Below are positions 1 through 13,345 of a stretch of 13,345 nucleotides of DNA, piece by piece; the first letter of the stretch is position 1; every line of letters begins with the position of its first letter. The notes under the pieces were generated by a model that did no database searches, had not been told where the DNA came from, and saw nothing but the letters and a program-made list of their open reading frames with translations. The stretch spans positions 1-13,345 of the forward strand of contig JAWOFP010000061.1 of the NCBI GenBank assembly GCA_046497485.1, in the 5' to 3' direction. The stretch comes from Candidatus Nanohaloarchaea archaeon (GTDB lineage Archaea; Nanohalarchaeota; Nanosalinia; Nanosalinales; Nanosalinaceae). The translations under genes and the position numbers were made by a program.

Positions 1-3000
1 ATCCAACGGTTTGAGGCCTCGACTCTTAGATTGAAGGAGTTATCTAGGTCTGTCTCAGCCTGGAAAATTGATTCCATCGTCCCGTTGTGAGGTATTGAGG
101 TCCGGGAGAGATTGAATGTTCCTTCTTCACTTGAACTAAAGTTGATTTGCTTGACTGGAAGATTTGTCTCATTTAATTCTATACTGTGCTCCCCTTCTGG
201 AGCTCTTATATCCACATAGTATGCAGATTCATTGACTTCTAGCTCTGCTTCATTTAAACTTGAAGGCGGTCCGCCACCTGAGAAACCGCCTCCACCACCT
301 CCACCGGATGAACCGCCATCATTATCAGAGTTAGAGCTTTCTTCCTCAACCTCATAGCTCAAGGATTCAGATGTGAAAGTCGAGTTATTGAAAGAGGCCT
401 GAGCATCCCATTGATATGTTCCAGGTGACGGAGACTCTTCAAAACTAAAGGAATCGAGGCCTGAACTAAGGTTAGATTTGAAAGTTGAGCTCCCGGTTTC
501 GACTGTTAAATTAGGCTCTCCAACCGAAGTTATATTTCCTGAAAACTCTATAGTATCTCCTTCAGTATAAGTTGAGCTGTTAGGCGAGAGTTCAGAGAAC
601 TCAGAGTAAGGATCTAGAGAGAAGTTGCCGACTTCAGAACCATTGACTTTCAAAATGTAGAAACCTGTCTCATTCCAGTCAACTGAACCAGTAACATTTC
701 TTTCCTCGTTCTTATCTAGGAAATAATTTTGAGTAAAGTTAGACTCATTGATTGACAATGTTAGAGATTCATTGATTAGGCCAGAATCAGTATTATTTAG
801 AAGCGTCTCTATCTCGATCAGGCCTTTCTCCGACACATTGAAGGTGCTGTCACCGATAGTTACATTAGGCTTCTCTACTTCCACATCGGAGACATTTGAA
901 CCATTTATTTTAGCTGAAAAGTTCCCGGAATTTAGAGGCCTCAAAGTTTCTGAGATATTCTTTTTACCAGGGCTTACTTCTCCCGTATTAGATGCTTTCT
1001 CTATATCTCCAAGAGAGTAATTCAGATAGTCTAGGCCTGAAACATCTCCAGTGTTTTCAACTGTGGCGTTGAATCTTAGGCTCTGACCTGTGAAAAGCTC
1101 TGTAGAGTTAACTGAAGTCTGGTTTACCGAGATATTTGCATCGTTCAAGACTTCAAAATCTTTTGTATAATTAACTGTCTCCGACGAATAATTTCCTGGA
1201 TCCTCTATATTCTGGGTAAATACGACATTAGCTCCATCGCCTGAATCCAGTTCTATAGACTTGTTATTGCTGTAATCCGTGCCTCCTGTAATATTCATTG
1301 GAACAATGAAAGAGCCTGAAACATCGCCGATATTCTGGGCTGAAACATTGACCGATATATTCTCTCCCTCTACGATACTTGAGTTAGAAAGCGAAAGGCC
1401 TGTGATATTAAGCTCTGCATCGTTCAAAACCTCTAAATCTTTTTCTAGAGTAGAGTTAGCTGCTAGAGTATAGTTGCCAGGAGAATCAAATGACTGATTG
1501 AAGACAGTATCATTATTTGACTGTTTCTCTACCGTTACATTCCGACTCCGTTCTACCTGAGAATCAATCATGAACTCAATAAGACTTGAGGCCTGAACAT
1601 CCCCAGGATTCTCCGCTTGGAGAGTATAATTTACTGAATCTCCTTCCACAATCGTGTTATTTGATAGAGAACTGTCAAGCAATTCGATCGATCCAGGCCT
1701 TAAAACCTCTAAGCTTTCCGATAAATTACCTGAAGAAAGAGTATAGTTTCCTCTGTCACTGAACTTTCTATCGAAAGAAATGCTTTGATTTGATCCCCCT
1801 GAAATATTCCTTTCTACAGACTGGTCTAAGGATTCATCAACTTTCAGAGAGATATTGAAAAGGCCTGAGACATCTCCAATATTGGATGCTGTGACCGATG
1901 CCTCCACAGTATCGTTTTCGAAAAAGTTGTCCGTATTATTTAGTTGGAAGTTAGACAAGTTCAGTTGAGCGTCGTTAAGCACATTCAGATTTCCTGCCTC
2001 GGTACCGTTAACTGAAATGTTATAATAGCCAGGTTCAGTGAAGTCAGTAACAAAACTGTAATTCTTATCTGATTCAAAAGATACGAAGACATTTTGCTGG
2101 CTTATTTCTGTCCCGTTTCTGAGAAGCCTTAGGTCTGCGTCACCGTCGCCCCCGGCATTGTCCACTGTACCTGAAACGTTTACATACCCTCCTTCAACCA
2201 TCTCAGAATCATTCAACTGGGAACTCAGGCTGAAATCCGGATCAGGCATATCCACATCAAGGCCTCCCGCAAATGTTTCATTCACATAAACCTCATAATA
2301 TCCTTCTTCGGAAATACTTTGCTCGAACTGGAAGGACTTAGACTCTTCAGAGTTTAAATTGATAGTCTGATTTTCTGCTGAGCTATCATTGAACTTTAAT
2401 TCTAGGTTAACATCATTTTGCTCATTTCTAAGATTCTCTATATCGCCTGAAACAGCAAATATTTCTTCGATTTCGGCCTCAGAATTATTTACTGTAACGT
2501 TCTCAATCACAGCACCTCGATCAAAATTCTGGATTGCGTACTCAGTAGCAGCATAAGCATCAATAATACCATGACCATAACGAGTATCCTGACCATCTAT
2601 CGAATAGTTAGCAGATGAGCCATCCCAACTATCAGGCTTCCAAGCAGTCTGAACAAAGGCCTCAGAAATATTCTCAGGAGAAAGATAATTGTAGGTCGCT
2701 GACTGCATCAAAGCTGCGGCGCCAGAAACATGAGGTGTCGCCATGCTCGTTCCTCTTTTGTAACCATAGCTGTTACCTGGCTCACTACTGTAAACATTTT
2801 CTCCAGGAGCCGCCAAGTCCGGCACAATGTATTCGCTCGGCCAAGACTCCGGAGGATTATTCCAGGCCTGATCAGAATCAATTTTTTCACCGCTAGAGAA
2901 AGATGTGATGCCTCCACTGGAATTTGAAGCACCTATAGCAGAGACATTGTAAATATTACTTGGCGATATACTTGTTCCTTCCCCGCTGTTACCAGATGCG

Positions 3001-4004
3001 CCGATTACGATAGTGCCATTATTATGAGCATTCTCCACAGAATCGTTGAATATACTGTAATAACCTGCAGCCCCTAAACTCATGCTTAATATATCCGCAT
3101 CGTTTTCAACTGACCACTGCATAGCACCGGCAATATCTGATAAATCCCCGACACAATTACCATCAGGATTTTCATTCATTAATGCCCCTACGTTCATCAA
3201 AGAAACATTTGGAGCAACACCAATATTGGTTCCAGAGGCATTACCTCCTGAAACCGTGCCGCTGACATGAGTTCCGTGATCCCCTCCTCCATGAGAACAA
3301 ACCTTAGGCTCCGAGCCATCAACCTTTCCCGTACCATTCTTGAATTCAGCCCATCCGCCAGGATAGGTCGGATCAGACTCATCAGTAGTAAAGAGATCAA
3401 GATCAGCATGATTGATATCGATACCTGTATCAATCACTGAAACCTTTACACCCTCTCCTCTTGTATCGAACTCGCTCCAAGTCTCAGTAGCATTAATCTG
3501 ATCCATGCCATAAGTGTTAGAGGCTTGAGGACTAGCCTCTGAACCCCCAGAAGCTGAACCTGATTGAAGAGCCTCTACTTCAGCATTCACGTTCAGGCTT
3601 TCTACTCCTTGAACCGATGCAATATTTTCCAATGGAATATTATTTGAGGCCTCTAAAAGAACTGCGTTTGTTATCCAGAACTTATTTTTTACTTCTATAT
3701 TAGGATTTTTCTCCACCATCTTGAGTAAAGGACTCTGTGATTTTGAGGCCTGAGACTTCATTTCGCTTATCTTGGTAGGCCTTCCTTTGTAGCCCTGTAA
3801 TTTGACGAAGACTTGTTCTTTCTCAGGAGTATCTGTGCTGAAAAATCCGAATCCCTCCTGCTGGAACTTTGACTCAAGCTCAGGATCGATATCTACATTT
3901 GATGGATCCTGTGTCGGAACTTCTGCTGACTGACCTGAGACTAACGCCACCAGCAAGACAAGTATTACAGTTAAGCTCCCGAGGCCTGCGAGGAAATGTT
4001 TCAC
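1..4004 (-). CDS. Secreted S8 (subtilisin-like) serine peptidase with propeptide, ~8 CARDB/Ig-like repeats, Gly-rich linker and probable PGF-pre-PGF-like region; 3' end truncated by window
   Basis: Hand translation is open from GTG at 4004 to the left edge. Signal peptide MKHFLAGLGSLTVILVLLVALVSG; catalytic motifs VSVIDTGID (Asp codon 3429-3431), DHGTHVSGT (His 3276-3278), GASGNSG (oxyanion Asn), GTSMATPHVSGAAAL (Ser 2745-2747). Repeats carry N-x-G-D-V-S-G and PG-N-Y-T motifs; linker GGSSGGGGGGGFSGGGPP. Confidence 0.95.
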   Translation of the reverse strand, partial: MKHFLAGLGSLTVILVLLVALVSGQSAEVPTQDPSNVDIDPELESKFQQEGFGFFSTDTPEKEQVFVKLQGYKGRPTKISEMKSQASKSQSPLLKMVEKNPNIEVKNKFWITNAVLLEASNNIPLENIASVQGVESLNVNAEVEALQSGSASGGSEASPQASNTYGMDQINATETWSEFDTRGEGVKVSVIDTGIDINHADLDLFTTDESDPTYPGGWAEFKNGTGKVDGSEPKVCSHGGGDHGTHVSGTVSGGNASGTNIGVAPNVSLMNVGALMNENPDGNCVGDLSDIAGAMQWSVENDADILSMSLGAAGYYSIFNDSVENAHNNGTIVIGASGNSGEGTSISPSNIYNVSAIGASNSSGGITSFSSGEKIDSDQAWNNPPESWPSEYIVPDLAAPGENVYSSEPGNSYGYKRGTSMATPHVSGAAALMQSATYNYLSPENISEAFVQTAWKPDSWDGSSANYSIDGQDTRYGHGIIDAYAATEYAIQNFDRGAVIENVTVNNSEAEIEEIFAVSGDIENLRNEQNDVNLELKFNDSSAENQTINLNSEESKSFQFEQSISEEGYYEVYVNETFAGGLDVDMPDPDFSLSSQLNDSEMVEGGYVNVSGTVDNAGGDGDADLRLLRNGTEISQQNVFVSFESDKNYSFVTDFTEPGYYNISVNGTEAGNLNVLNDAQLNLSNFQLNNTDNFFENDTVEASVTASNIGDVSGLFNISLKVDESLDQSVERNISGGSNQSISFDRKFSDRGNYTLSSGNLSESLEVLRPGSIELLDSSLSNNTIVEGDSVNYTLQAENPGDVQASSLIEFMIDSQVERSRNVTVEKQSNNDTVFNQSFDSPGNYTLAANSTLEKDLEVLNDAELNITGLSLSNSSIVEGENISVNVSAQNIGDVSGSFIVPMNITGGTDYSNNKSIELDSGDGANVVFTQNIEDPGNYSSETVNYTKDFEVLNDANISVNQTSVNSTELFTGQSLRFNATVENTGDVSGLDYLNYSLGDIEKASNTGEVSPGKKNISETLRPLNSGNFSAKINGSNVSDVEVEKPNVTIGDSTFNVSEKGLIEIETLLNNTDSGLINESLTLSINESNFTQNYFLDKNEERNVTGSVDWNETGFYILKVNGSEVGNFSLDPYSEFSELSPNSSTYTEGDTIEFSGNITSVGEPNLTVETGSSTFKSNLSSGLDSFSFEESPSPGTYQWDAQASFNNSTFTSESLSYEVEEESSNSDNDGGSSGGGGGGGFSGGGPPSSLNEAELEVNESAYYVDIRAPEGEHSIELNETNLPVKQINFSSSEEGTFNLSRTSIPHNGTMESIFQAETDLDNSFNLRVEASNRW
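355..2515 (-). repeat. About 8 tandem ~90-aa CARDB/Ig-like domain repeats within the subtilase (approximate bounds)
   Basis: Recurrent protein motifs: (L/F)(E/N)VLNDA junctions; SNIGDVSG / ENPGDVQA / QNIGDVSG / ENTGDVSG; EEGYY / EPGYY / RGNYT / PGNYT / PGNYS. Confidence 0.75.
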
Positions 4005-4103
4005 TAAATCAGATTTATCTTTCCGGGAATATAATGTTTTAAGCCATCAAGCAGTAACTTAAAAAGGATTTAGCTCCAATTTCTTCTTAACCCACACCAC
4101 CTC

Positions 4104-4297: not shown

Positions 4298-5182
4298 GTG
4301 TATGTGAACTTGGAAAATCTCAGCGCTTCACTAAGCCCAGAAACTGGAGAACTAGCGGAATTACTAGAAGAAGATAGTTCATTATCTATAGAAGAGGAAG
4401 GCGACGTAGATATATACATAGACAAATTACCAGACAATTTAGAAAGGCCTAATGTTGTAGTGACAGTAGACCAGAAAAAAGCCGGTAGGGCATCGAGATT
4501 AGGAGCCAATCAAGTGTTGACCGGCCAACCAGAAGATTTCTCCGATTTGATTTACCAAGAAGCAAAAAAGGCTAGAAAAAATCACTTGGATAACAGAAGA
4601 AACGAGATAACTCAGATAGGACTTCAAGATCTTATTCACAACGTGAGAAACCCTATATCTGTGATAAACGGGTATCTAGACCTGCATAAAGATGACCTGG
4701 ATGACGAACTTCACGAAACCTTAACGGAGAGCGCTTCCAGAATTATAGAGGCCTGTGATGACGCGAATAAGTACAGATTTCACAACGGAGAAAGTTACAG
4801 CGAATTGAGCGAAGAATTTTTCCAGGACATTCATGAATCGCTCTCCTTCAGGATCAAAGACGAAGAAGAAGACCTAGAGATATATGGAGAGAATGAGATG
4901 ATAGAGTTGAATGCTCTTGATGAGATAATGGTCTACAACTTATTGGACAACAGTTTAGAACATGGGGAAACTCCTGAGATTGGGATGGAAGGATACCAAG
5001 ACGGATACTTCACAGCTCATGTCAAGGACGGAGGCAATATACCCGAAGACGTCTGGAACTCGTGGCAGAACGGCGGAGAATACGGAGGAACAGGCAGTAA
5101 GCTGATCTCATACGCCAGAGACATAAACGGAAATGAACTTGAGAGAACGGATGAAGGATACAGGATAAAGATTTCTAGCTGA
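4298..5182 (+). CDS. Soluble histidine kinase-like protein (degenerate receiver-like N-terminus, HisKA, HATPase_c)
   Basis: H-box DLIHNVRNPISVINGYLDL; N-box VYNLLDNSLEHG; G1-like VKDGGNIP; G2-like GGTGSKL. N-terminal VVVTVD...ASRLGANQVL resembles the C-half of a receiver domain. No transmembrane segment. Confidence 0.85.
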   Translation: MYVNLENLSASLSPETGELAELLEEDSSLSIEEEGDVDIYIDKLPDNLERPNVVVTVDQKKAGRASRLGANQVLTGQPEDFSDLIYQEAKKARKNHLDNRRNEITQIGLQDLIHNVRNPISVINGYLDLHKDDLDDELHETLTESASRIIEACDDANKYRFHNGESYSELSEEFFQDIHESLSFRIKDEEEDLEIYGENEMIELNALDEIMVYNLLDNSLEHGETPEIGMEGYQDGYFTAHVKDGGNIPEDVWNSWQNGGEYGGTGSKLISYARDINGNELERTDEGYRIKISS

Positions 5183-5616: not shown

Positions 5617-5895
5617 TTACTCACCTATCTCAAATAAATGTCCATTACTGTTCGCCGCATTTCTCAGATGATACACTGAAACATCTCTAGAGAACTCATC
5701 AATCTCCTGCTCCAGTTCCTCCACAAGCCTGGATATTTCATCCTGTAAATAGATAGAACCATTATATTCTACAAACTCATCCTCGAATTTTAAGGCCTCG
5801 TCATTTTCTCCTTCAAAACCCTCTACAGATGATTCAAAATAAGTTGAGGCCTCTAAAGTATTCCTTAACTCATTATGCCTATAATCTTCGCTCAT
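5617..5895 (-). CDS. Acidic hypothetical protein (92 aa)
   Basis: ATG start 3 nt after the upstream stop; D/E-rich like its neighbours. Confidence 0.8.
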   Translation of the reverse strand: MSEDYRHNELRNTLEASTYFESSVEGFEGENDEALKFEDEFVEYNGSIYLQDEISRLVEELEQEIDEFSRDVSVYHLRNAANSNGHLFEIGE

Positions 5896-5898
5896 GTT

Positions 5899-6552
5899 TT
5901 ATCGCTCCCCTTCAAGTATCTGTTGTAATTCAGATAAATTCTCTGCTTTTCTTCCGTCTTTTCTCTCATTTTTCTCAACTAGACCCCTTTCTGGATCATT
6001 TACCATAACCTGTTCAAGTCGGGAAAACTGCACGGCATCTCTCAGATCTAAAACATATCTCTGCCCATCTTTATAGACAGCAATACCATCTGAAGCCTCC
6101 TTGAACTCCTCCATGCCTGCTTTCCTCAGAGCCCAGGGAATATTTCTCTCCCATCCATCAGATTTCTTTCTGACAGTGAACTCTCTATTTTCATCAGGTC
6201 GATGACTGTAGTCGGTAAGATCAAGATCGTATTCTTGATCAAAAAACTGTCTGAAAGGAACTGTCATCAAGTTTCTCTTATTAGAAGACAAGTTCTCTGA
6301 AGCCTCATCGATATTTTTGAAACTTACTCTGAGATTATCTCCAATACTGTTTTCAAAATAGGTTAGGCCTACTCTGAAGCTTTCGGATTCAGGAAGATTC
6401 TTCTCACCCATCTCCATATTAACCTCATAGATTTTCTCAGTAGGATAATCGCCAGCCTCATCTACCTCTGCTATTTCATAATCTTCAACATCTAGGCCTG
6501 AAAGCTGTTCAAAGTTTTCATAAAGTTCTTTTAGGCCTGAAATTTCTTCCAT
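5899..6552 (-). CDS. Acidic hypothetical protein (217 aa)
   Basis: Long acidic ORF co-oriented with neighbours; no motif recognised. Confidence 0.85.
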   Translation of the reverse strand: MEEISGLKELYENFEQLSGLDVEDYEIAEVDEAGDYPTEKIYEVNMEMGEKNLPESESFRVGLTYFENSIGDNLRVSFKNIDEASENLSSNKRNLMTVPFRQFFDQEYDLDLTDYSHRPDENREFTVRKKSDGWERNIPWALRKAGMEEFKEASDGIAVYKDGQRYVLDLRDAVQFSRLEQVMVNDPERGLVEKNERKDGRKAENLSELQQILEGER

Positions 6553-6577
6553 ATTTATGACAAATTAGCCGTGAATT

Positions 6578-7285
6578 TTATATTGATTCTCTCGTGGTAA
6601 CAGATTCCTGGATTTCTTCAGCAAACTGTTCAAGCTCTTCTTCAGAATCAAGTATCTCAACTGTCGCATACATAGATTCCTCATCAAATTCCTGGAACTC
6701 CTCTACATACAGTCTGCGTTCTCCAACCTCAAATCTATAATTTGTGTCTTTTATATCAATGTAACGACCCTGTTTAACCGCTTCAATATCTTCATCAAGC
6801 AAAGTCGACTCCGCATTATTCACCCAATAACCTCCTACTTCGAGGCCTTCACCTGTGCCGATTTCCATAGTCAATTCCTCTACAGTTTCCGCCAAACCTT
6901 CTTCAGAAAGATTTTCAAACCTGTCTACAACACTCACTTCAATGTCTAGGTCTTCCGATATATCGTCTCTAAGATGGTCAGAGACATTATGGATTTCGTA
7001 AGGATGAGCCCCATCTTCTTGATCGGAGTAAACAGTGATTACAGGAAAGCTCTCCTCTAATGCTATAACCCTCTCACCCTGGTAAAGTTTTACCTGCTCT
7101 CCTTCAGAGTCTAAAATCCGGTCAGGTTCGCCGTATACTGCGTCAAAAGTAGCCTCGGCATACTCATGTGAGTTATCGAAATCTTCTGGATCCTTTCCAA
7201 TTATTCCCCCTTTGGAAAGGGCTGTAAAATCTTTTCTAGACATTGAGTCGTGTACCCTTCCTCTATCTCTATTATGCCTATCCAT
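6578..7285 (-). CDS. Acidic hypothetical protein (~235 aa); N-terminal half belongs to a local paralogue family
   Basis: ATG at 7285 preferred over TTG at 7300. FDNSHEYAEA...LDSEGEQVKLYQGE aligns ungapped with the 8011-8433 product. Confidence 0.85.
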   Translation of the reverse strand: MDRHNRDRGRVHDSMSRKDFTALSKGGIIGKDPEDFDNSHEYAEATFDAVYGEPDRILDSEGEQVKLYQGERVIALEESFPVITVYSDQEDGAHPYEIHNVSDHLRDDISEDLDIEVSVVDRFENLSEEGLAETVEELTMEIGTGEGLEVGGYWVNNAESTLLDEDIEAVKQGRYIDIKDTNYRFEVGERRLYVEEFQEFDEESMYATVEILDSEEELEQFAEEIQESVTTRESI

Positions 7286-7338
7286 ACAGCAAGAAAACAA
7301 TTATAGGCCTTCTTTAAAAGCGTTGTTACTTCTAGAAC

Positions 7339-7575
7339 CTAATCTTTGATTCTGTCTCTGAAAACAACCCTAAACTTCTCAAAGGCCTTTGTCGCATTCT
7401 CAGTCATCAAGACAGCGCCGAAAGAAACCGTAAAAAGAGAAATCATAGTTCCCTGAGTCAGAGGCAGCTTACTTCCAACAATCTGAACTTGCAAAAGCGA
7501 TTCCGTCAAGGAGATCAGGCCTATTAACATTACAGAAACACCTGCGAAATCTGTTAAAATCCTGTCAAACTTCAT
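7339..7575 (-). CDS. Small membrane protein, two predicted TM helices (78 aa)
   Basis: Hydrophobic segments FAGVSVMLIGLISL and GTMISLFTVSFGAVLM; basic C-terminal tail; 1-nt TAATG overlap with the upstream gene. Confidence 0.8.
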   Translation of the reverse strand: MKFDRILTDFAGVSVMLIGLISLTESLLQVQIVGSKLPLTQGTMISLFTVSFGAVLMTENATKAFEKFRVVFRDRIKD

Positions 7576-7958
7576 TATATTAGATAATCCCTGTTATCTA
7601 CAGATTTATGCCTTTTCATATCATAACGGAAAAACTTTTCAATAGCTCTCTCGGCCTCTTCAACAGTAGAAGCCTCAATACCATCTTCGACCCCTCCCAT
7701 CGGCGTAGCAAGCCCTAAACTATCTAAGCCTGAAGAAGAATCCTGTTCAAGATAACCAACTATAATAGAATCCTCTCTCGGAAACACAACAAGGCCTCCT
7801 TCAAACCCACGATAAAATCTTGGACCAGATACATCTTCATCATAAAGATCCTCTACCTCTTCTGAAGCCGCTCCAAAACTATGCCTACGAGACGGATCAA
7901 CATCTAATCTTTTGTTAAGCGAGTCAGACAAACCATTATTATAGAACTCTTCCATCAT
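7575..7958 (-). CDS. Acidic hypothetical protein (127 aa), probable distant member of the local paralogue family
   Basis: GFEGGLVVFPREDSIIVGYLEQ resembles GLGLLYEGEDTVVAFLEQ of the neighbouring gene. Confidence 0.8.
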   Translation of the reverse strand: MMEEFYNNGLSDSLNKRLDVDPSRRHSFGAASEEVEDLYDEDVSGPRFYRGFEGGLVVFPREDSIIVGYLEQDSSSGLDSLGLATPMGGVEDGIEASTVEEAERAIEKFFRYDMKRHKSVDNRDYLI

Positions 7959-8010
7959 CTAACAATATAGAGATGAAGCTTTAGAACAATTTCGGCTTCG
8001 AAACACCAGT

Positions 8011-8433
8011 TTAACTTTCTAAATCAACAATCTCCTTCAACTTTACAGCCGCTTCATTAGGCCCATAACTACCGTTAATCTCCAACTCTATATCTTCCCA
8101 GACCTCGGAATCCAGTCTCGAAGTCGAGGCCTCCCGAACAGCACCCGCCTTGTCATCAACAGAGGAGGAAACAGTAAACTGGGAGATACCAAGAGACTCA
8201 CCCTGCTCTAGAAACGCTACGACAGTATCTTCTCCCTCATACAGAAGGCCTAACCCTTGCTCAGATTCGAACTCGTATACAGGCCTAAAAACTGTATACT
8301 GTAAAATATCTGCGGCATAATCCATCAAAGAATCATACTCATCCACACGGCTAATCACAACATCCCCATTTGGAGAAACCCTATCCAGGAAATAACTTTT
8401 CCTCATCTCAGTGTATTCAGCAGAGTCTCTCAC
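8011..8433 (-). CDS. Acidic hypothetical protein (140 aa), local paralogue family
   Basis: GTG start with a TATA-like ATTAAG about 22 nt upstream; similarity to the 10897-11409 and 6578-7285 products. Confidence 0.82.
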   Translation of the reverse strand: MRDSAEYTEMRKSYFLDRVSPNGDVVISRVDEYDSLMDYAADILQYTVFRPVYEFESEQGLGLLYEGEDTVVAFLEQGESLGISQFTVSSSVDDKAGAVREASTSRLDSEVWEDIELEINGSYGPNEAAVKLKEIVDLES

Positions 8434-8511
8434 CTCAAAAACATAGACTCCAAGACTTAATACCCTATCCTAAGACTTTCAAGAACTACCTAAAAAAATA
8501 TTTAGAAATCT

Positions 8512-8534
8512 CTCAAAAGTTAAACAAATGATCC
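8512..8534 (-). repeat. Degenerate copy A of the TA-associated element, downstream of the DUF433/DUF5615 operon
   Basis: + strand CTCAAAAGTTAAACAAATGATCC versus consensus CTCAAAAGTTAAATCAATAATCC, 20/23 identical; no ATG at the conserved spacing. Confidence 0.7.
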
Positions 8535-8551
8535 AAAAGGGAGAAAACCCT

Positions 8552-8857
8552 CTAAATATAGATGATAAACTCATCTCCCAGATCCTCATCAAAATAAGGC
8601 CTCAATTCATCCAATACTTTTTCAGGCCTAGGAAAACCATTTAATTGGAAAATTCCATTATGTTCTAGCTCCGAAGCCAGTTTAAGGAAGTCAGTATCAC
8701 GAGTAACTATAACCGCATCAAGTTCAACCGCATGATTCAAATGAAACCTGTCAGACTTACCAAGGCCTTCTTCACTCATATAGAAAACTTCGAAATCCTC
8801 TTCCTCCAGTAAATCACCTAATTCAGGATCAATATGCTCATCTAAATAAAACTTCAC
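8552..8857 (-). CDS. DUF5615 family PIN-like toxin (VapC45-like)
   Basis: MKFYLDEHI, GKSDRFHL, AVIVTRDTDF motifs; GTGA overlap with the upstream DUF433 gene. Confidence 0.9.
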   Translation of the reverse strand: MKFYLDEHIDPELGDLLEEEDFEVFYMSEEGLGKSDRFHLNHAVELDAVIVTRDTDFLKLASELEHNGIFQLNGFPRPEKVLDELRPYFDEDLGDEFIIYI

Positions 8858-9084
8858 GCAGTCATCTCACCGCTTAACTGGCGGCGCACCTCTTTCGGAT
8901 TCTCATAATAATAAACCAAAGCCGCATAAACATCTCGCTCACTTACATCCAATTTCTCAGAAATCTCCTCAGGCTCAAGCCCTCTCTGCTCATAAAACCC
9001 AACAACATCAACAACTCTAACCCTAGTATCCTTAATCCTAGGCTTGCCATCAAAGACATCCTGAGTCGAAACAATCCGCGACAT
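8854..9084 (-). CDS. DUF433 family antitoxin (VapB45-like)
   Basis: IVSTQDVFDGKPRIKDTRVRV...EEISEKLDVSERDVYAALVYY signature; ATG at 9084 is at the conserved promoter spacing. Confidence 0.9.
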   Translation of the reverse strand: MSRIVSTQDVFDGKPRIKDTRVRVVDVVGFYEQRGLEPEEISEKLDVSERDVYAALVYYYENPKEVRRQLSGEMTA

Positions 9085-9091
9085 AAACAAA

Positions 9092-9122
9092 TTATAGAAC
9101 TCAAAAGTTAAATCAATAATCC
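9092..9122 (-). promoter_or_regulatory. Copy B of the 31-bp TA-associated element; probable leaderless promoter of the DUF433/DUF5615 operon
   Basis: GGATTATTGATTTAACTTTTGAGTTCTATAA; TATA-like TTTAAC 22 nt before ATG 9084; identical to 12384-12414. Confidence 0.8.
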
Positions 9123-9137
9123 CGGAAAAACAGGCCT

Positions 9138-9518
9138 CTATGAAATTATGCTTCTTGCAGACTCTGCAAAACCCTTAACATCTTCCAAATCTGATTTAAA
9201 CTCTTCTAACTCAAAATTAACCTCCAGCTCATAATCAGCCTGATCTCTTTTCTGCTGCAGCCTTTGAAGAAGTATAGCTTCTTCCCTCTCAAACAACTCT
9301 TTATCATCGTAAAGAACTTGGAAAACTCTATCCGCCGTACCTCTATGAGTCTTAGCAACAACACCCTCAGACAAAAGAGCGGCCTTAGCTGCATAGAAAA
9401 GACCATAATAAAGCCTGTTATAGAGAGCTCGGACCGAAACATTAGAATCCATCATCACTTCAACATCCTCAATAGCCTGATCTGAAAGATCCATAAAATC
9501 TTCAGGCTTATCAGACAT
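9138..9518 (-). CDS. HEPN domain protein (UPF0332/COG1895-like), pair 2
   Basis: YNRLYYGLFYAAKAALL..G...KTHRG and RDQADY motifs; ATG 9518 overlaps the MNT stop (TATGTCTGA). Confidence 0.9.
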   Translation of the reverse strand: MSDKPEDFMDLSDQAIEDVEVMMDSNVSVRALYNRLYYGLFYAAKAALLSEGVVAKTHRGTADRVFQVLYDDKELFEREEAILLQRLQQKRDQADYELEVNFELEEFKSDLEDVKGFAESARSIIS

Positions 9519-9825
9519 AAGCCTCACCAGTCTTCTCAACCTCTCTCACAAAAATACTGTCTCTAACCGACTCAAACTCCTCTACAGTCTTCACCACAGG
9601 AACCATAAAAACCCCGAACTCAACATTTACATCAAAAGCCAGTTCCTCAAGAACTTCCTTATCACTCTTTTCTTTCACAACTGCAAAGACATCAACATCA
9701 CTGCCCTCATTTTCTTCACCACGAGCCACAGAACCGTAAAGAACCAATTTCTCCAGAGACTCACCAAGCTCTTCCTCAGCTCTCTCAACGAATTCTTCAA
9801 AGGCCTTTCTCTGTTTAGATGCCAT
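9511..9825 (-). CDS. Minimal nucleotidyltransferase (MNT) antitoxin, pair 2
   Basis: LYGSVARGEENEGSDVDVFAVV = GS-X10-DXD motif. Confidence 0.92.
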   Translation of the reverse strand: MASKQRKAFEEFVERAEEELGESLEKLVLYGSVARGEENEGSDVDVFAVVKEKSDKEVLEELAFDVNVEFGVFMVPVVKTVEEFESVRDSIFVREVEKTGEAYV

Positions 9826-9833
9826 CGAATTCC

Positions 9834-10199
9834 TTACTCCGCTACTTCTTTGAATTTTTGTATAAGTTTCGAAGCTTTTTCCCTCATACTATCCTTATCA
9901 AACCCGATTTCTGCTTCTGGATTATAATCTTTCTCTTCTCTTATAGTCTTCAACTGAGAAAACAGTTTAGCCTCTTCCCTACTTATGAATTCCTCATCTT
10001 TGTAAAGTATCTTACCAACTAAAGTATCAGTACCGCTGTGAGTCTTTGGTTCAAAACCTAGAGATAGAAGAGCTGCCTTCGCCGCATAGAAAGACGAGTA
10101 ATAAAGTGAATTCCAGTAACCTCTATCAGATAATCCTTCAACACTAGTATCAGCAAACGCCTCTTCAGACATTTCTAAATACTCTTCAGCCTCAGACAT
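9834..10199 (-). CDS. HEPN domain protein (UPF0332/COG1895-like), pair 1
   Basis: WNSLYYSSFYAAKAALLSLG.EPKTHSG and REEKDY motifs; ATG 10199 overlaps the MNT stop (TATGTCTGA), same geometry as pair 2. Confidence 0.9.
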   Translation of the reverse strand: MSEAEEYLEMSEEAFADTSVEGLSDRGYWNSLYYSSFYAAKAALLSLGFEPKTHSGTDTLVGKILYKDEEFISREEAKLFSQLKTIREEKDYNPEAEIGFDKDSMREKASKLIQKFKEVAE

Positions 10200-10503
10200 A
10201 GGCCTCACCCGTAGACCTAACCTCTCTACCATAAACAGTATCCTTTACATTCAGATACTCCTCTTCAGTCTTGACAATGGGCGAAAAAGAGACTTCATAA
10301 TCCAAACCGGTTTCAAAAGCCAAATCTCTCAACTCTTTCTTATCTTCTTCAGAATCTACGACTGCAAAGACATCAACATCGCTTTCCTCATTTTCTTCAC
10401 CACGAGCCACAGAACCGTAAAGAACCAATTTCTCCAAAGACTCACCAAGCTCTTCTTGGGCTTCCTCAGCAAATTCTTCAAAGGCTTCACGATGCCGACT
10501 CAT
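10192..10503 (-). CDS. Minimal nucleotidyltransferase (MNT) antitoxin, pair 1
   Basis: LYGSVARGEENEESDVDVFAVV. Start moved to ATG 10503 from alignment with the paralogue and the 22-nt promoter spacing. Confidence 0.92.
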   Translation of the reverse strand: MSRHREAFEEFAEEAQEELGESLEKLVLYGSVARGEENEESDVDVFAVVDSEEDKKELRDLAFETGLDYEVSFSPIVKTEEEYLNVKDTVYGREVRSTGEAYV

Positions 10504-10510
10504 AGATAAC

Positions 10511-10541
10511 TTATAGCACTCAAAAGTTAAATCAATAATCC
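10511..10541 (-). promoter_or_regulatory. Copy C of the 31-bp TA-associated element; probable promoter of the MNT-HEPN-MNT-HEPN operon
   Basis: 30/31 identical to copies B and E; TTTAAC 22 nt before ATG 10503. Confidence 0.8.
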
Positions 10542-10885
10542 CACAGATAACCTTGGATACTGCTTGAAGGTTCGAACGGATCATCACCTACTCTAGGAGG
10601 CCTGTAAGATACTTCATCCAGATCTAAAACATCTTTCTCCAGATTTGCTTCCTCCACTAACTCACCCGCACCAGCATAATCTCTGAACACTAATCTTCTA
10701 TCAAACTCGGAAGCATCAATATCTAGATCAAGAGCCTCAAGGCCTTCAATTAAACCGGTATGAACACTGAAATAGTAGTCATCTAGAAACAAGTTATCCT
10801 TTTCAGACCTGTCATACATTCTCCAAAGCTGATCAATATACTGATGAACATCGACAACATCTTCAACCTCTGGAACATCCTCCAT
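10532..10885 (-). CDS. Acidic hypothetical protein (117 aa)
   Basis: SD-like GAGGA upstream of the ATG; stop codon lies inside repeat copy C. Confidence 0.8.
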   Translation of the reverse strand: MEDVPEVEDVVDVHQYIDQLWRMYDRSEKDNLFLDDYYFSVHTGLIEGLEALDLDIDASEFDRRLVFRDYAGAGELVEEANLEKDVLDLDEVSYRPPRVGDDPFEPSSSIQGYLWDY

Positions 10886-10896
10886 GCTAAATCCTC

Positions 10897-11409
10897 TTAA
10901 TTATCACTCTTGAACGGATTGCTTTCAACGATTTTAGAGACTTCATAGAAGGCCTCCTGACCATCAACATCGTAATGTAACTCGTTTTGGGCGTCAGGAT
11001 AATGCTCTTCTGGGCCTTCATACAGCCACTCTTTAACAGAATCTAAGTCGGCGCCATCTTCAAAGTTGAAAAGATCAATACCTATATCATCTTCACTATC
11101 GGAGATAACCAAGACAGAATTATCATCTTCATATAGAAATGAAGAACCTCTAAAGCCCTCTATGCCTTGTGAAAGTTCAAACCTGGACTCGCCTGCGACT
11201 TTATTCAAATAACTAAATAGAGAACTGAATGACTCTCTAGGACTATGACCTGTATCAGACTCATACCCGGTTTCTCCATCAGACTCATATCCAATTACCT
11301 TTTCTTCATCAGGCATGAACTCTTCGGAAACACGGTGATTTTCCTCAAACCTGCCTAATTCCACATTTCTATTTGGTATAAAATTCCAAGGTATATCGCT
11401 GTTTTTCAT
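10897..11409 (-). CDS. Acidic hypothetical protein (170 aa), local paralogue family
   Basis: SD-like GGAGG upstream; ~54-aa ungapped similarity to the 8011-8433 product. Confidence 0.85.
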   Translation of the reverse strand: MKNSDIPWNFIPNRNVELGRFEENHRVSEEFMPDEEKVIGYESDGETGYESDTGHSPRESFSSLFSYLNKVAGESRFELSQGIEGFRGSSFLYEDDNSVLVISDSEDDIGIDLFNFEDGADLDSVKEWLYEGPEEHYPDAQNELHYDVDGQEAFYEVSKIVESNPFKSDN

Positions 11410-11425
11410 TAGTTTAAATCCCTCC

Positions 11426-11581
11426 TTAGTCGAGTTCAGACTCTAAATAAGACAGAGCTCTCTGAATTTCATCAACATCACCGAATCTTGAATCCCTAAC
11501 AGGATTAACCAAGGCCTCTACCAAGGTCATTCCCTCATCCATATCAAAGGCTTCAGAAGGTTCTGGAAGATTTGTCGCCAT
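11426..11581 (-). CDS. Small acidic hypothetical protein (51 aa), below ORF-track cutoff
   Basis: MATNLPEPSEAFDMDEGMTLVEALVNPVRDSRFGDVDEIQRALSYLESELD*; TTATAAA TATA box ~24 nt upstream; followed by the SD of the next gene. Confidence 0.7.
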   Translation of the reverse strand: MATNLPEPSEAFDMDEGMTLVEALVNPVRDSRFGDVDEIQRALSYLESELD

Positions 11582-11641
11582 AACAGTACAGAGACCAAAA
11601 GAATATTTATAACTAATTAGTAACGAAGATTTACAACTTTG

Positions 11642-11674
11642 AAGTTAAATCAATAATCTCCTAGGCAAAGAACC
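11642..11674 (-). repeat. Partial copy D of the element; 33-bp direct repeat with 12397-12429
   Basis: AAGTTAAATCAATAATCTCCTAGGCAAAGAACC versus AAGTTAAATCAATAATCCTCTAGCCAAAGAACC, 30/33 identical. Confidence 0.85.
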
Positions 11675-12141
11675 TAACTCTCAGATATCTCTAAAACTTT
11701 ACGGTAAAGCTCATCTGATATATAGAAACCCGAATTTCTCAACGCATCCATCTCCTGCTCCATATCTAAATCTGCTTTCATTAGAAGCCCTATAACTCCT
11801 GTAACTTTCAAGCCATGATTTTTAGCTTTCCTACGGCCTTCAGACTCATCAAGCAACACCAAATCAACATCATTCTCTACAGCATACTTGATACAGGCAG
11901 ACTCCCCTATATCCAGAGAATTCCTTAACTCAAAAAAGAAACTATCTTCCTCAACTTCAACAAAATCTAGCGAACTCTCAAACATCTGTAATTTCTCTTT
12001 ACCTCTGTCACCATCCATCAACTCTTCCCAAACCTGTTTAGGAACAATAACTTGGTCAAAATAATCATTGAGAATGTTCAACCTATCGATAAATGCCAAG
12101 TTCAATAGAACAGATGTGTCAGATACACTAACTTTTTGCAT
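11674..12141 (-). CDS. DUF3368-containing PIN-domain toxin (VapC-like)
   Basis: VSDTSVLLNL, VPKQVWEEL, LDIGESACI, LLDESEGR, VTGVIGLL, GFYISDELY motifs. Confidence 0.92.
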   Translation of the reverse strand: MQKVSVSDTSVLLNLAFIDRLNILNDYFDQVIVPKQVWEELMDGDRGKEKLQMFESSLDFVEVEEDSFFFELRNSLDIGESACIKYAVENDVDLVLLDESEGRRKAKNHGLKVTGVIGLLMKADLDMEQEMDALRNSGFYISDELYRKVLEISES

Positions 12142-12376
12142 AACTCAGATCATCCTTCAAATCCTCATCAGTATAATGCCTTTCAACCTCTCTATCACCT
12201 AAAACACTGTGAAACTCCTCTTTCGACAAACCAGCTAATTCTCTAGCTTTACCAAAGCTTAATGCACCTCTCCGATACAATGAGACCGCAAGCTCTAACC
12301 GGAGAGCCTCATCTTTCTCATCATCAGGCAACCTGATCGAATCAAAAACATCCTCAGGAATAACAACATCAGCCAT
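12128..12376 (-). CDS. UPF0175 family antitoxin
   Basis: LRLELAVSLYRRGALSFGKARELAGLSKEEF...HYTDEDLKDDL signature; overlaps the downstream PIN gene. Confidence 0.92.
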   Translation of the reverse strand: MADVVIPEDVFDSIRLPDDEKDEALRLELAVSLYRRGALSFGKARELAGLSKEEFHSVLGDREVERHYTDEDLKDDLSYAKS

Positions 12377-12383
12377 AAATACA

Positions 12384-12414
12384 TTATAGAACTCAAAAGT
12401 TAAATCAATAATCC
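12384..12414 (-). promoter_or_regulatory. Copy E of the 31-bp TA-associated element; probable promoter of the UPF0175/DUF3368 operon
   Basis: Identical to 9092-9122; TTTAAC 22 nt before ATG 12376. Confidence 0.8.
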
Positions 12415-12491
12415 TCTAGCCAAAGAACCACGCCCCTGATATAACAGGATTATATCCAAAAGAGGAAATCTTACTCAGAGAATTTAGATTT

Positions 12492-12547
12492 GGAAAGAAA
12501 AAGAAAAGAAGAAATAAGGAAAATGTGAAGAGAGGCCTTAAGGCCTC
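12492..12547 (-). terminator. Probable terminator of the S-layer gene
   Basis: Perfect 16-bp palindrome GAGGCCTTAAGGCCTC (12532-12547), followed on the minus strand by a long T/C tract, starting 27 nt after the stop codon. Confidence 0.65.
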
Positions 12548-12573
12548 AAATCTGGAACTTAGGGTCGAAGATT

Positions 12574-13345
12574 TTATTCTACGACTTGTCCAGATTCTGT
12601 GCTGATTGTAACCTGCTGGTTACCTTCAAGGTCTCCCTCATTGTTACGGTAATCAGCTAGGAACTCTCCAGCTGCACGTGTGTCTTCGCCACTGTAACCA
12701 GCAACGATCACTGCGTCCTGACCATCCGCGAAAGCGTTTGGTACATGCTGAATAAGTCCTTCTCCTTCAGTGTACTCATCAGCAGACCAAGTATCTCCTT
12801 CATCTGCTAACTCAGCAACTAAGCTGTTAACTGAAGGTCCACCAACCAATACCAGGTTGTCACTGTTCTGAACCTGTCCAACATTGCTGTCAGAGTCAAG
12901 AACTCCATCGGCATAGTTGTAAGTTGGACTCATGCTTGTAACTGATCCAGATCCTCCGCCTTCTGCGGAAAGAGCTCCGTCTTCTCCTGTGAACGCCATT
13001 CCAGATGTGGACTGTGCTCCAGGAACATTCAGTGTGAACGATTCTTCGTCACTGTCTTCAGTGTCGAATTCTCTGTAGGCTCCGTACTCATCGTAACCTA
13101 CTTCGACATCTTCATCGTCCATGTCGTCAACTTCTTCGTCGCCTGTGTATGTGGATGCGATGTCAGCAGTGTTGTCTGCTAGATCGACTTCCCAGACGTA
13201 TGCTTCTTCATCGTCGTCATCGTTCTCAGGCTGAGTGTAAAGTACACCAGGTTCTGCTTCGTTGTTTCTGACTAGGTCGACTTCCTCGTCAGTTCCTGTT
13301 GCCTCTACTTCGTACTGTACGAAGTCAGGTGTCTGAACTTCGCTG
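12574..13345 (-). CDS. S-layer protein, C-terminal part (S_layer_C-like domain); 5' end outside window
   Basis: Frame is open to the right edge. NLVLVGGPSVNSLV...GEGLIQ...AVIVAGYSGEDTRAAGEFL is typical of Methanococcales/DPANN-type S-layer C-termini. Strong TAC/AAC/TTC/GAC codon preference suggests high expression. Confidence 0.85.
   Translation of the reverse strand, partial: SEVQTPDFVQYEVEATGTDEEVDLVRNNEAEPGVLYTQPENDDDDEEAYVWEVDLADNTADIASTYTGDEEVDDMDDEDVEVGYDEYGAYREFDTEDSDEESFTLNVPGAQSTSGMAFTGEDGALSAEGGGSGSVTSMSPTYNYADGVLDSDSNVGQVQNSDNLVLVGGPSVNSLVAELADEGDTWSADEYTEGEGLIQHVPNAFADGQDAVIVAGYSGEDTRAAGEFLADYRNNEGDLEGNQQVTISTESGQVVE

Follow-up and report, generated by a model that had tools for sequence, protein, structure and literature searches.

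Promoter-like repeats between toxin-antitoxin modules behind a nanohaloarchaeal S-layer gene

How does a row of toxin-antitoxin (TA) modules come to be separated by copies of one short sequence, and does that sequence help to move them? The question is raised by a stretch of 13,345 nucleotides, hereafter the window, which is contig C42 (JAWOFP010000061.1) of the draft genome GCA_046497485.1 of Candidatus Nanohaloarchaea archaeon (Nanosalinaceae; 0.97 Mb, 41.5% GC, 97% complete). The proteins of this genome are acidic, and it was found in lake and hypersaline-lake metagenomes. On the minus strand, three TA operons and a unit of three orphan open reading frames (ORFs) follow an S-layer gene, with the repeated element at their borders. 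A preliminary description of the sequence had taken the element for a recombination site. We find that it looks like a core promoter, and we consider it probable that this promoter-like repeat doubles as a short homology through which modules are exchanged, lost and gained by general recombination, with no dedicated recombinase.

The repeated element and its promoter layout

The array begins ~200 nt downstream of the S-layer gene. Its features are listed from that gene onwards (G, C, L and X numbers denote genomes of relatives, contigs, fetched loci and sequencing runs).

12574..13345, minus strand: 3' part of the S-layer gene (S_layer_C, PF05124, E 1.8e-12), with homologues in 31 of 49 relatives; anchor of the hot spot
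12490..12550, minus strand: likely S-layer terminator, a short hairpin followed by a pyrimidine-rich tract (function predicted from sequence)
12377..12429, minus strand: element copy 1, with a 15-nt upstream extension, a part resembling a transcription factor B recognition element (BRE) and a TATA box (TTTAA, 12404-12400) 28 nt before ATG 12376; promoter layout for a leaderless UPF0175 operon
11674..12376, minus strand: UPF0175 antitoxin and DUF3368 toxin module (Pfam)
11632..11674, minus strand: element copy 2, apparently an orphan decayed promoter; second arm of the 33-bp repeat; break at 11658 in X1 and X2
10532..11581, minus strand: three orphan ORFs (51, 170 and 117 aa) with their own TATA-like box ~30 nt before ATG 11581
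10504..10541, minus strand: element copy 3, promoter layout for the MNT-HEPN block; TATA 28 nt before ATG 10503; break at 10541 in X3
9138..10503, minus strand: MNT1-HEPN1-MNT2-HEPN2 (Pfam); the tandem occurs elsewhere behind another promoter, and a one-pair form in two runs
9085..9122, minus strand: element copy 4, promoter layout for DUF433/DUF5615; TATA 28 nt before ATG 9084
8552..9084, minus strand: DUF433 antitoxin and DUF5615 (PIN-like) toxin module (Pfam)
8512..8534, minus strand: element copy 5, apparently an orphan decayed promoter; bridged by X2 and X3 contigs
8434..8470, minus strand: element copy 6, diverged; ATTAAG 28 nt before the presumed GTG start of ORF 8011-8433; resembles array promoters of G024 and G063

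Pfam searches of the window proteins returned UPF0175, DUF3368, two MNT (NTP_transf_2), two HEPN, DUF433, DUF5615 and S_layer_C, in agreement with the families named in the preliminary description. The window thus holds two-gene operons of known TA families, with MntA scoring below the NCBIfam cut-off. DUF433/DUF5615 and UPF0175/DUF3368 we take to be TA pairs, and DUF3368 is presumably a PIN-type toxin. By family, the units are Type II/VII TA modules with predicted toxicity and neutralisation. The best named relatives of the UPF0175 antitoxin are haloarchaeal (60-66% identity).

A 22-mer of the element at up to three mismatches matched the window five times, as against none in 200 shuffles, and a 25-mer at up to five mismatches matched only these five places in the whole genome. 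The five co-oriented copies reported earlier are therefore real, and to them we add the more diverged sixth copy at 8434-8470. The 33-bp direct repeat around the UPF0175/DUF3368 module was likewise recovered (11642-11674 versus 12397-12429, 30 of 33 positions identical), and each of the three TA operons ends in TAG 14-17 nt before an element copy; the stop codon TGA of the last orphan ORF falls within the copy at 10511. The copies at 8512 and 11642 had been likened to hybrid attL/attR-like junctions. Both do lack an ATG at the 28-nt spacing, but the copy at 11642 still matches a full copy downstream of the TATA box at 2+4+2+1 positions, which points to a complete promoter that has decayed and not to a fusion with unrelated DNA.

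TTTAA begins 28 nt before the ATG in each of the copies that lead the three TA operons. Over the genome's 625 genes with a gap upstream, the most frequent positions of TTTAA and TTTAT are -30 and -28. Because the TATA distance equals this genome-wide spacing, the element looks like a BRE/TATA core promoter laid out for leaderless TA operons, an arrangement whose promoter elements are described in PMC7289017. Variants of its core, TGATTTAA, are also found upstream of DUF433 or MNT operons that occur singly, in G028, G036, G072, G014 and G064 and on contig C57 of the genome under study, with no flanking copy seen. A motif scan such as the preliminary description had proposed found nothing in the genome beyond the five places; among 60 relatives, three had matches at up to three mismatches, and only the one in G028 precedes a TA operon. 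Haloarchaeal UPF0175 operons (21 of 80 loci inspected) have promoters that differ from the element. A 17-mer scan of metagenomes gave at least 120 stretches, but in none of them did the similarity carry on into the flank; the best matched 12 of 23 downstream bases. In viral contigs a 19-mer gave two matches of one AT-rich stretch without further likeness, while the DUF433 protein found no relative there.

We then compared promoters among 53 hand-picked TA promoters. Pairs within the window, which belong to three unrelated TA families, have likenesses of 0.85-0.90. Promoters of different TA families in the same array score 0.62 (27 pairs). Within a single family the figure is 0.46 between loci of one genome (28 pairs) and 0.44 between genomes (343 pairs), and for random promoters it is 0.38. 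TA promoter likeness thus tracks locus and not TA family; the arrays of G002, G024 and G063 each have promoter repeats of their own.

The DNA homology that the UPF0175 and MNT modules share with relatives stops at the ATG or close to it; in the DUF433 module, by contrast, homology to the S-layer arrays of G002 and G063 extends into the promoter. The DUF433 module was therefore probably the promoter donor, and the other ORFs would have been joined behind copies of it. At the DNA level the DUF433/DUF5615 module is 77% identical to the module that comes first after the S-layer gene in G002, and positions 9572-10496 of the MNT-HEPN block match contig C76 of G063 at 71%. On that contig (L271:6385-9151), four MNT-HEPN pairs form one tandem operon behind a different promoter.

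Exchanged units and a hot spot behind the S-layer gene

Contigs from four runs of three studies were compared with the window at an 85% threshold; the small-share runs X5, X7 and X9 were left out. One contig of run X3 (contig 21) joins window positions 10183-10541 to ~850 other bases and then to 11690-12176, so that the three-ORF unit is replaced; one of its breaks lies at the element edge (10541) and the other 16 nt inside DUF3368 (11690). Position 11658 is a break point in X1 and X2, and the X2 sequence has a DUF433-type start upstream of the copy concerned. X1 also has a weak 8515/10522 joint (24 letters). Further breaks lie outside the element: at 9498/10183 in X2 and X3 (22 letters, within the repeated HEPN start), at 9132, at 11512/11553 (487 bases inserted) and at 12409/12490. 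The earlier proposal that element-bounded units differ among co-occurring populations is thus borne out by several breaks at the upstream edge of the element (10541, 11658), but other breaks (11690, 9132, 9498/10183, 11512, 12490) ignore that edge.

The related proposal, that modules travel as cassettes whose tail rebuilds the next promoter, can be kept in part. Units are swapped and relatives' arrays contain local repeats, but the tail varies. In X1 and X3, DUF3368 is linked to an element copy through a different 33-base tail, and the tail is therefore not a fixed part of a cassette; likewise, the 12409/12490 break means that the segment holding the 15-nt extension is itself variable. Summed depth in X1, which is not a copy number, is 46-110 over the TA modules and ~6 over the flank, which suggests that the modules are common to other populations; the source sample may be X1. 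With regard to misassembly, contigs of X2 and X3 span the 8512 junction and those of X6 the 9122 junction, while none of the pieces listed spans the 11658-11674 junction.

The position of the array is shared with relatives. Of 49 DUF433 matches in relatives, 8 lie within 2 kb downstream of an S-layer match (expected 0.11), all on the same strand, and 11 lie within 4 kb. The eight belong to seven genomes of five genera, with kin not independent. From the 31 relatives we retrieved 20 S-layer loci, including 9 selected because of TA adjacency. Among the other 11, a clear TA pair follows the S-layer gene in four (G064, G021, G020, G018), a lone DUF2283 in one and no TA gene in six. A terminator-like layout similar to that of the window lies 3' of most S-layer genes among the 20 loci, and the first module behind the S-layer gene varies between genomes.

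The repeated seam between modules varies as well. In G014, a copy of the S-layer terminator occurs in all four gaps examined, two of which also hold an S-layer coding end (~30 and 45 nt), and in G002 an upstream piece of the promoter is repeated after the last module. The seam therefore changes identity and length between genomes and joints, being either a promoter or an S-layer 3' end plus terminator, and in this it is unlike a fixed attachment (att) site. Along L221:4000-7732 of G014, decayed S-layer 3' ends and terminator copies precede successive TA modules and are possibly relics of earlier S-layer alleles.

How the array may have grown

The att/dif-type core postulated in the preliminary description did not survive closer analysis. 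Its central AAC-N6-GTT is intact in three of the five copies; the remaining copies depart from it, and the ATG-leading copy at 10511, for example, has GTG. The arms of the dyad match at 6, 5, 6, 7 and 3 of 11 positions across the five copies. Of 572 ordinary promoters of the genome, 91% contain a dyad that reaches 6/11 or more at some place, under a lenient null that takes the best over positions and spacers of 5-8. AAC-N6-GTT was absent from 10 of 10 relatives' array promoters tested, among 11 collected from the G002, G024 and G063 arrays; these read AAG at that place, and their spacer varies. Folding of the five junctions gave energies within ~1.5 standard deviations of shuffles on both strands, with neither an attC-like hairpin nor a stem-loop terminator in the element. 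The absence of a visible recombinase from the window was upheld: the genome encodes two tyrosine recombinases of 404-417 aa, both on other contigs. They score 69 and 53 bits against an XerA cut-off of 220 in this draft genome, the integron-integrase model TIGR02249 reached 23 bits against a cut-off of 265, and no IntI was found in the window. PF00589 was unmatched in 16 of 50 family genomes, many of them incomplete, including TA-bearing G018 (single contig, 96% complete), G002 and G032. The seam is accordingly predicted to be a promoter and not an att site. A third PF00589 match in the genome (C17) was rejected as below cut-off and within a DEAD-box-like ORF.

A site-specific cassette system, in which a tyrosine recombinase would cut the AAC-N6-GTT dyad in the manner of integron cassettes or dif modules, could account for the direct orientation, the steady TAG-to-element distance and the breaks at the edge of the element, and two candidate enzymes are encoded in the genome. 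Against this stand the unremarkable and unconserved dyad, the missing attC-like hairpin, tails that vary between alleles, a repeated unit that varies by genome, and the lack of XerA or IntI above cut-off together with the family genomes devoid of PF00589 matches; we hold this explanation to be very improbable. Equally remote is the idea that the copies are kept alike by purifying selection as a shared operator, with one regulator, such as an antitoxin or a stress factor, co-controlling the array. The identity of the three ATG-leading copies does extend all the way from -38 to -1, but the version differs from one relative's array to another, the element is missing from the genome's six other DUF433 operons, and the orphan copies retain the upstream half.

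A static TA cluster with concerted promoter evolution, in which modules arrived independently by illegitimate joins and short-patch gene conversion levelled their promoters, would deprive the repeats of any role in mobility. We judge it unlikely, though clearly less so than the two preceding schemes. It would fit a TGATTTAA core common to TA promoters family-wide, the breaks outside the element (11690, 9132, 9498/10183, 11512) and the TA modules at many repeat-free sites of the genome, but it leaves unexplained why orphan copies sit directly behind stop codons, why the 33-bp repeat reaches 15 nt beyond the promoter, why G014 has copies of the S-layer tail and why unit replacements end exactly at 10541 and 11658. 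As for TA modules elsewhere, contig C51 (18000-39400) alone carries at least seven more, which have separate promoters and are scattered among genes for pilin-like and ribosomal proteins.

General recombination between promoter copies remains the reading we prefer, and several observations weigh against it. Promoter homogenisation is not general (0.38-0.50 in G014 and 0.45 in G021), and pure promoter gene conversion yields equal within-array similarity. The joints described are among those listed, beyond which lie 155 loose ends and 444 pieces. The populations behind the variant contigs are mixed, their identity is 85-95%, several joints rest on short sides (22-43 letters), and TA promoters of other loci may account for the loose ends at 9117/12409. 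The 11642/12397 joint expected of a circle was not found among 15 of the 17 joints listed, all from contigs. Lastly, a gradient with the newest module nearest the S-layer gene is present in G024 and absent from G063 and the window.

Starting from the observed promoter geometry, the local homogenisation over three TA families, the replaced units and the family-wide S-layer hot spot, one can picture how general recombination would build such an array, provided that S-layer recombination is the port of entry and addiction the ratchet. DNA carrying an S-layer allele and a linked TA module would enter via homologous recombination in the conserved S-layer end, while the far end would be joined by microhomology or illegitimately, directly upstream of the resident module's promoter. 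The resident promoter, or in G014 the S-layer tail and terminator, would thereby be copied as a direct repeat whose length varies per joint. Recombinants that lose the resident antitoxin or its promoter would die, so that modules accrete. The repeated promoter copies would then permit swaps and deletions like those of the phage PeSL cassettes discussed below and become homogenised, new ORFs being retained only if their ATG falls on the start site, and older units would decay to orphan promoters (8512, 11642). A bolder version, which we put forward as possible though doubtful, is an integrase-free 'addiction ratchet' at the S-layer locus. Each coat-allele swap would bring a new TA module, the resident module could not be lost, and a promoter or old S-layer tail would be copied as the seam, the array becoming a record of coat replacements combined with promoter-bounded cassettes that shuffle TA genes from haloarchaeal hosts.

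Several known systems invite comparison. The PeSL cassettes of the T4-type phages RB49 and phi1 (Arbiol et al. 2010, PMC2839356) have, as here, repeated promoters between the stop of an accessory gene and the next start, in a hyperplastic region, and their modules are lost, gained and replaced by homologous recombination between copies. A repeated promoter between accessory genes of a variable region, as in PeSL, is present in the window. Unlike PeSL, the window array sits on an archaeal chromosome, with a BRE/TATA leaderless promoter, an element without stem-loop terminator, TA cargo and an S-layer anchor; PeSL cassettes form mini-circles, whereas the window system is known from contigs only. 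The array thus appears to work like PeSL, yet we do not file it there because the stem-loop is absent. In Haloquadratum walsbyi, likewise a halophilic archaeon, repeat-mediated deletion and deletion-coupled insertion affect strain-specific segments that lie between short direct repeats or are swapped at one position, and the S-layer gene itself lies on a swapped region (PMC3119063). Those repeats are mostly <20 bp and share no motif, whereas the seam of the window is a recurring, functional-looking promoter and its array accumulates.

Acinetobacter dif modules, including the TA-carrying add-dif (PMC6449649), and archaeal Xer/dif (PMC2958812) also place small accessory or TA modules in a row with a short repeated site between them. 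The dif site has an 11-6-11 structure with a conserved inner palindrome for Xer proteins (PMC6449649, PMC2958812), whereas the window element has no significant or conserved dyad. Unlike archaeal integrons and CALINs (bioRxiv 10.1101/2022.02.06.479319, whose main text does not contain 'Nanohalo'), the window has no attC hairpin or IntI above cut-off, and each unit has its own promoter. In the literature within reach, with most subscription journals and supplements outside its scope, we came upon no account of TA arrays located downstream of S-layer genes in nanohaloarchaea, and the word 'toxin' is absent from the parts consulted of PMC10266531 and 10.1101/2025.02.15.638363. If general recombination is indeed the agent, genome-reduced DPANN symbionts would build integron-like arrays from only a repeated promoter or terminator, TA accumulation would be linked to the gene for a likely virus receptor and host-contact surface, and the seams would date the events.

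A probable origin box and neighbouring sequences

Between the array and the S-layer terminator lies a palindrome that does not delimit the array.

12438..12456, strand not assigned: TATAAC-N3-GTTATA, one copy with 1 mismatch; probable Orc1/Cdc6 box

The genome holds 10 exact copies of TATAAC-N3-GTTATA, against 0 at five other spacings. It is present in 45 of 70 genomes of the order (control matches: 0), with a centre that is mostly R-S-Y, and it forms clusters of up to nine copies upstream of cdc6 and of the gene for the small polD subunit (polD2). In sampled loci it adjoins cdc6 in 9 of 30 and a Pfam-confirmed TA pair in 1 (22 of 72 flanking ORFs scanned). Copies lie on C43 and C51 of the genome under study and at L320-L324, L291, L293, L303, L304, L308-L310, L318 and L319. 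From this context it is probably the nanohaloarchaeal Orc1/Cdc6 box marking oriC, and would then give a handle on nanohaloarchaeal replication origins. A title-level search found no paper on it.

The copy at 12438 was also considered as the true att site of the array and was rejected, as the window holds only one copy and the sampled loci adjoin cdc6 (9) more often than a confirmed TA pair (1). Dispersed copies do flank TA modules as direct repeats on C51 (22782, 23574) and in G051 and G072 (loci L326, L327, L330, L275, L276), and the palindrome thus forms a third kind of seam beside the promoter and the S-layer tail with terminator. Were a site-specific system present in these organisms, this box would be a better candidate than the promoter. 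In G072 each TA module has one copy of the palindrome, at intervals of 700-900 bp and often with a 70-bp tail that is conserved, and many TA-bounding copies lie at contig ends.

The three orphan ORFs of the array have no Pfam or NCBIfam match, and neither they nor six other unannotated ORFs have a paralogue in the genome or the fetched loci. For the 170-aa ORF no homologue of similar length was found, and an Atlas search gave no usable match. Acidic orphan ORFs without family match run through 5617-8433 as well as 10532-11581; by eye, ORFs of 170, 140 and 127 aa have a faint 'LYED/EG' patch in common, for which tblastn gave no support. Searches of the window for tRNAs and Rfam families returned no match. 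At 4298-5182 lies an orphan histidine-kinase-like ORF (HisKA below cut-off), and a similar ORF occurs near the S-layer gene of G004 (L230). A large gene on the minus strand (1-4010) runs past the contig end and by eye resembles a subtilisin-like protease followed by repeated domains, and the hexamer AGGCCT is highly frequent throughout the window.

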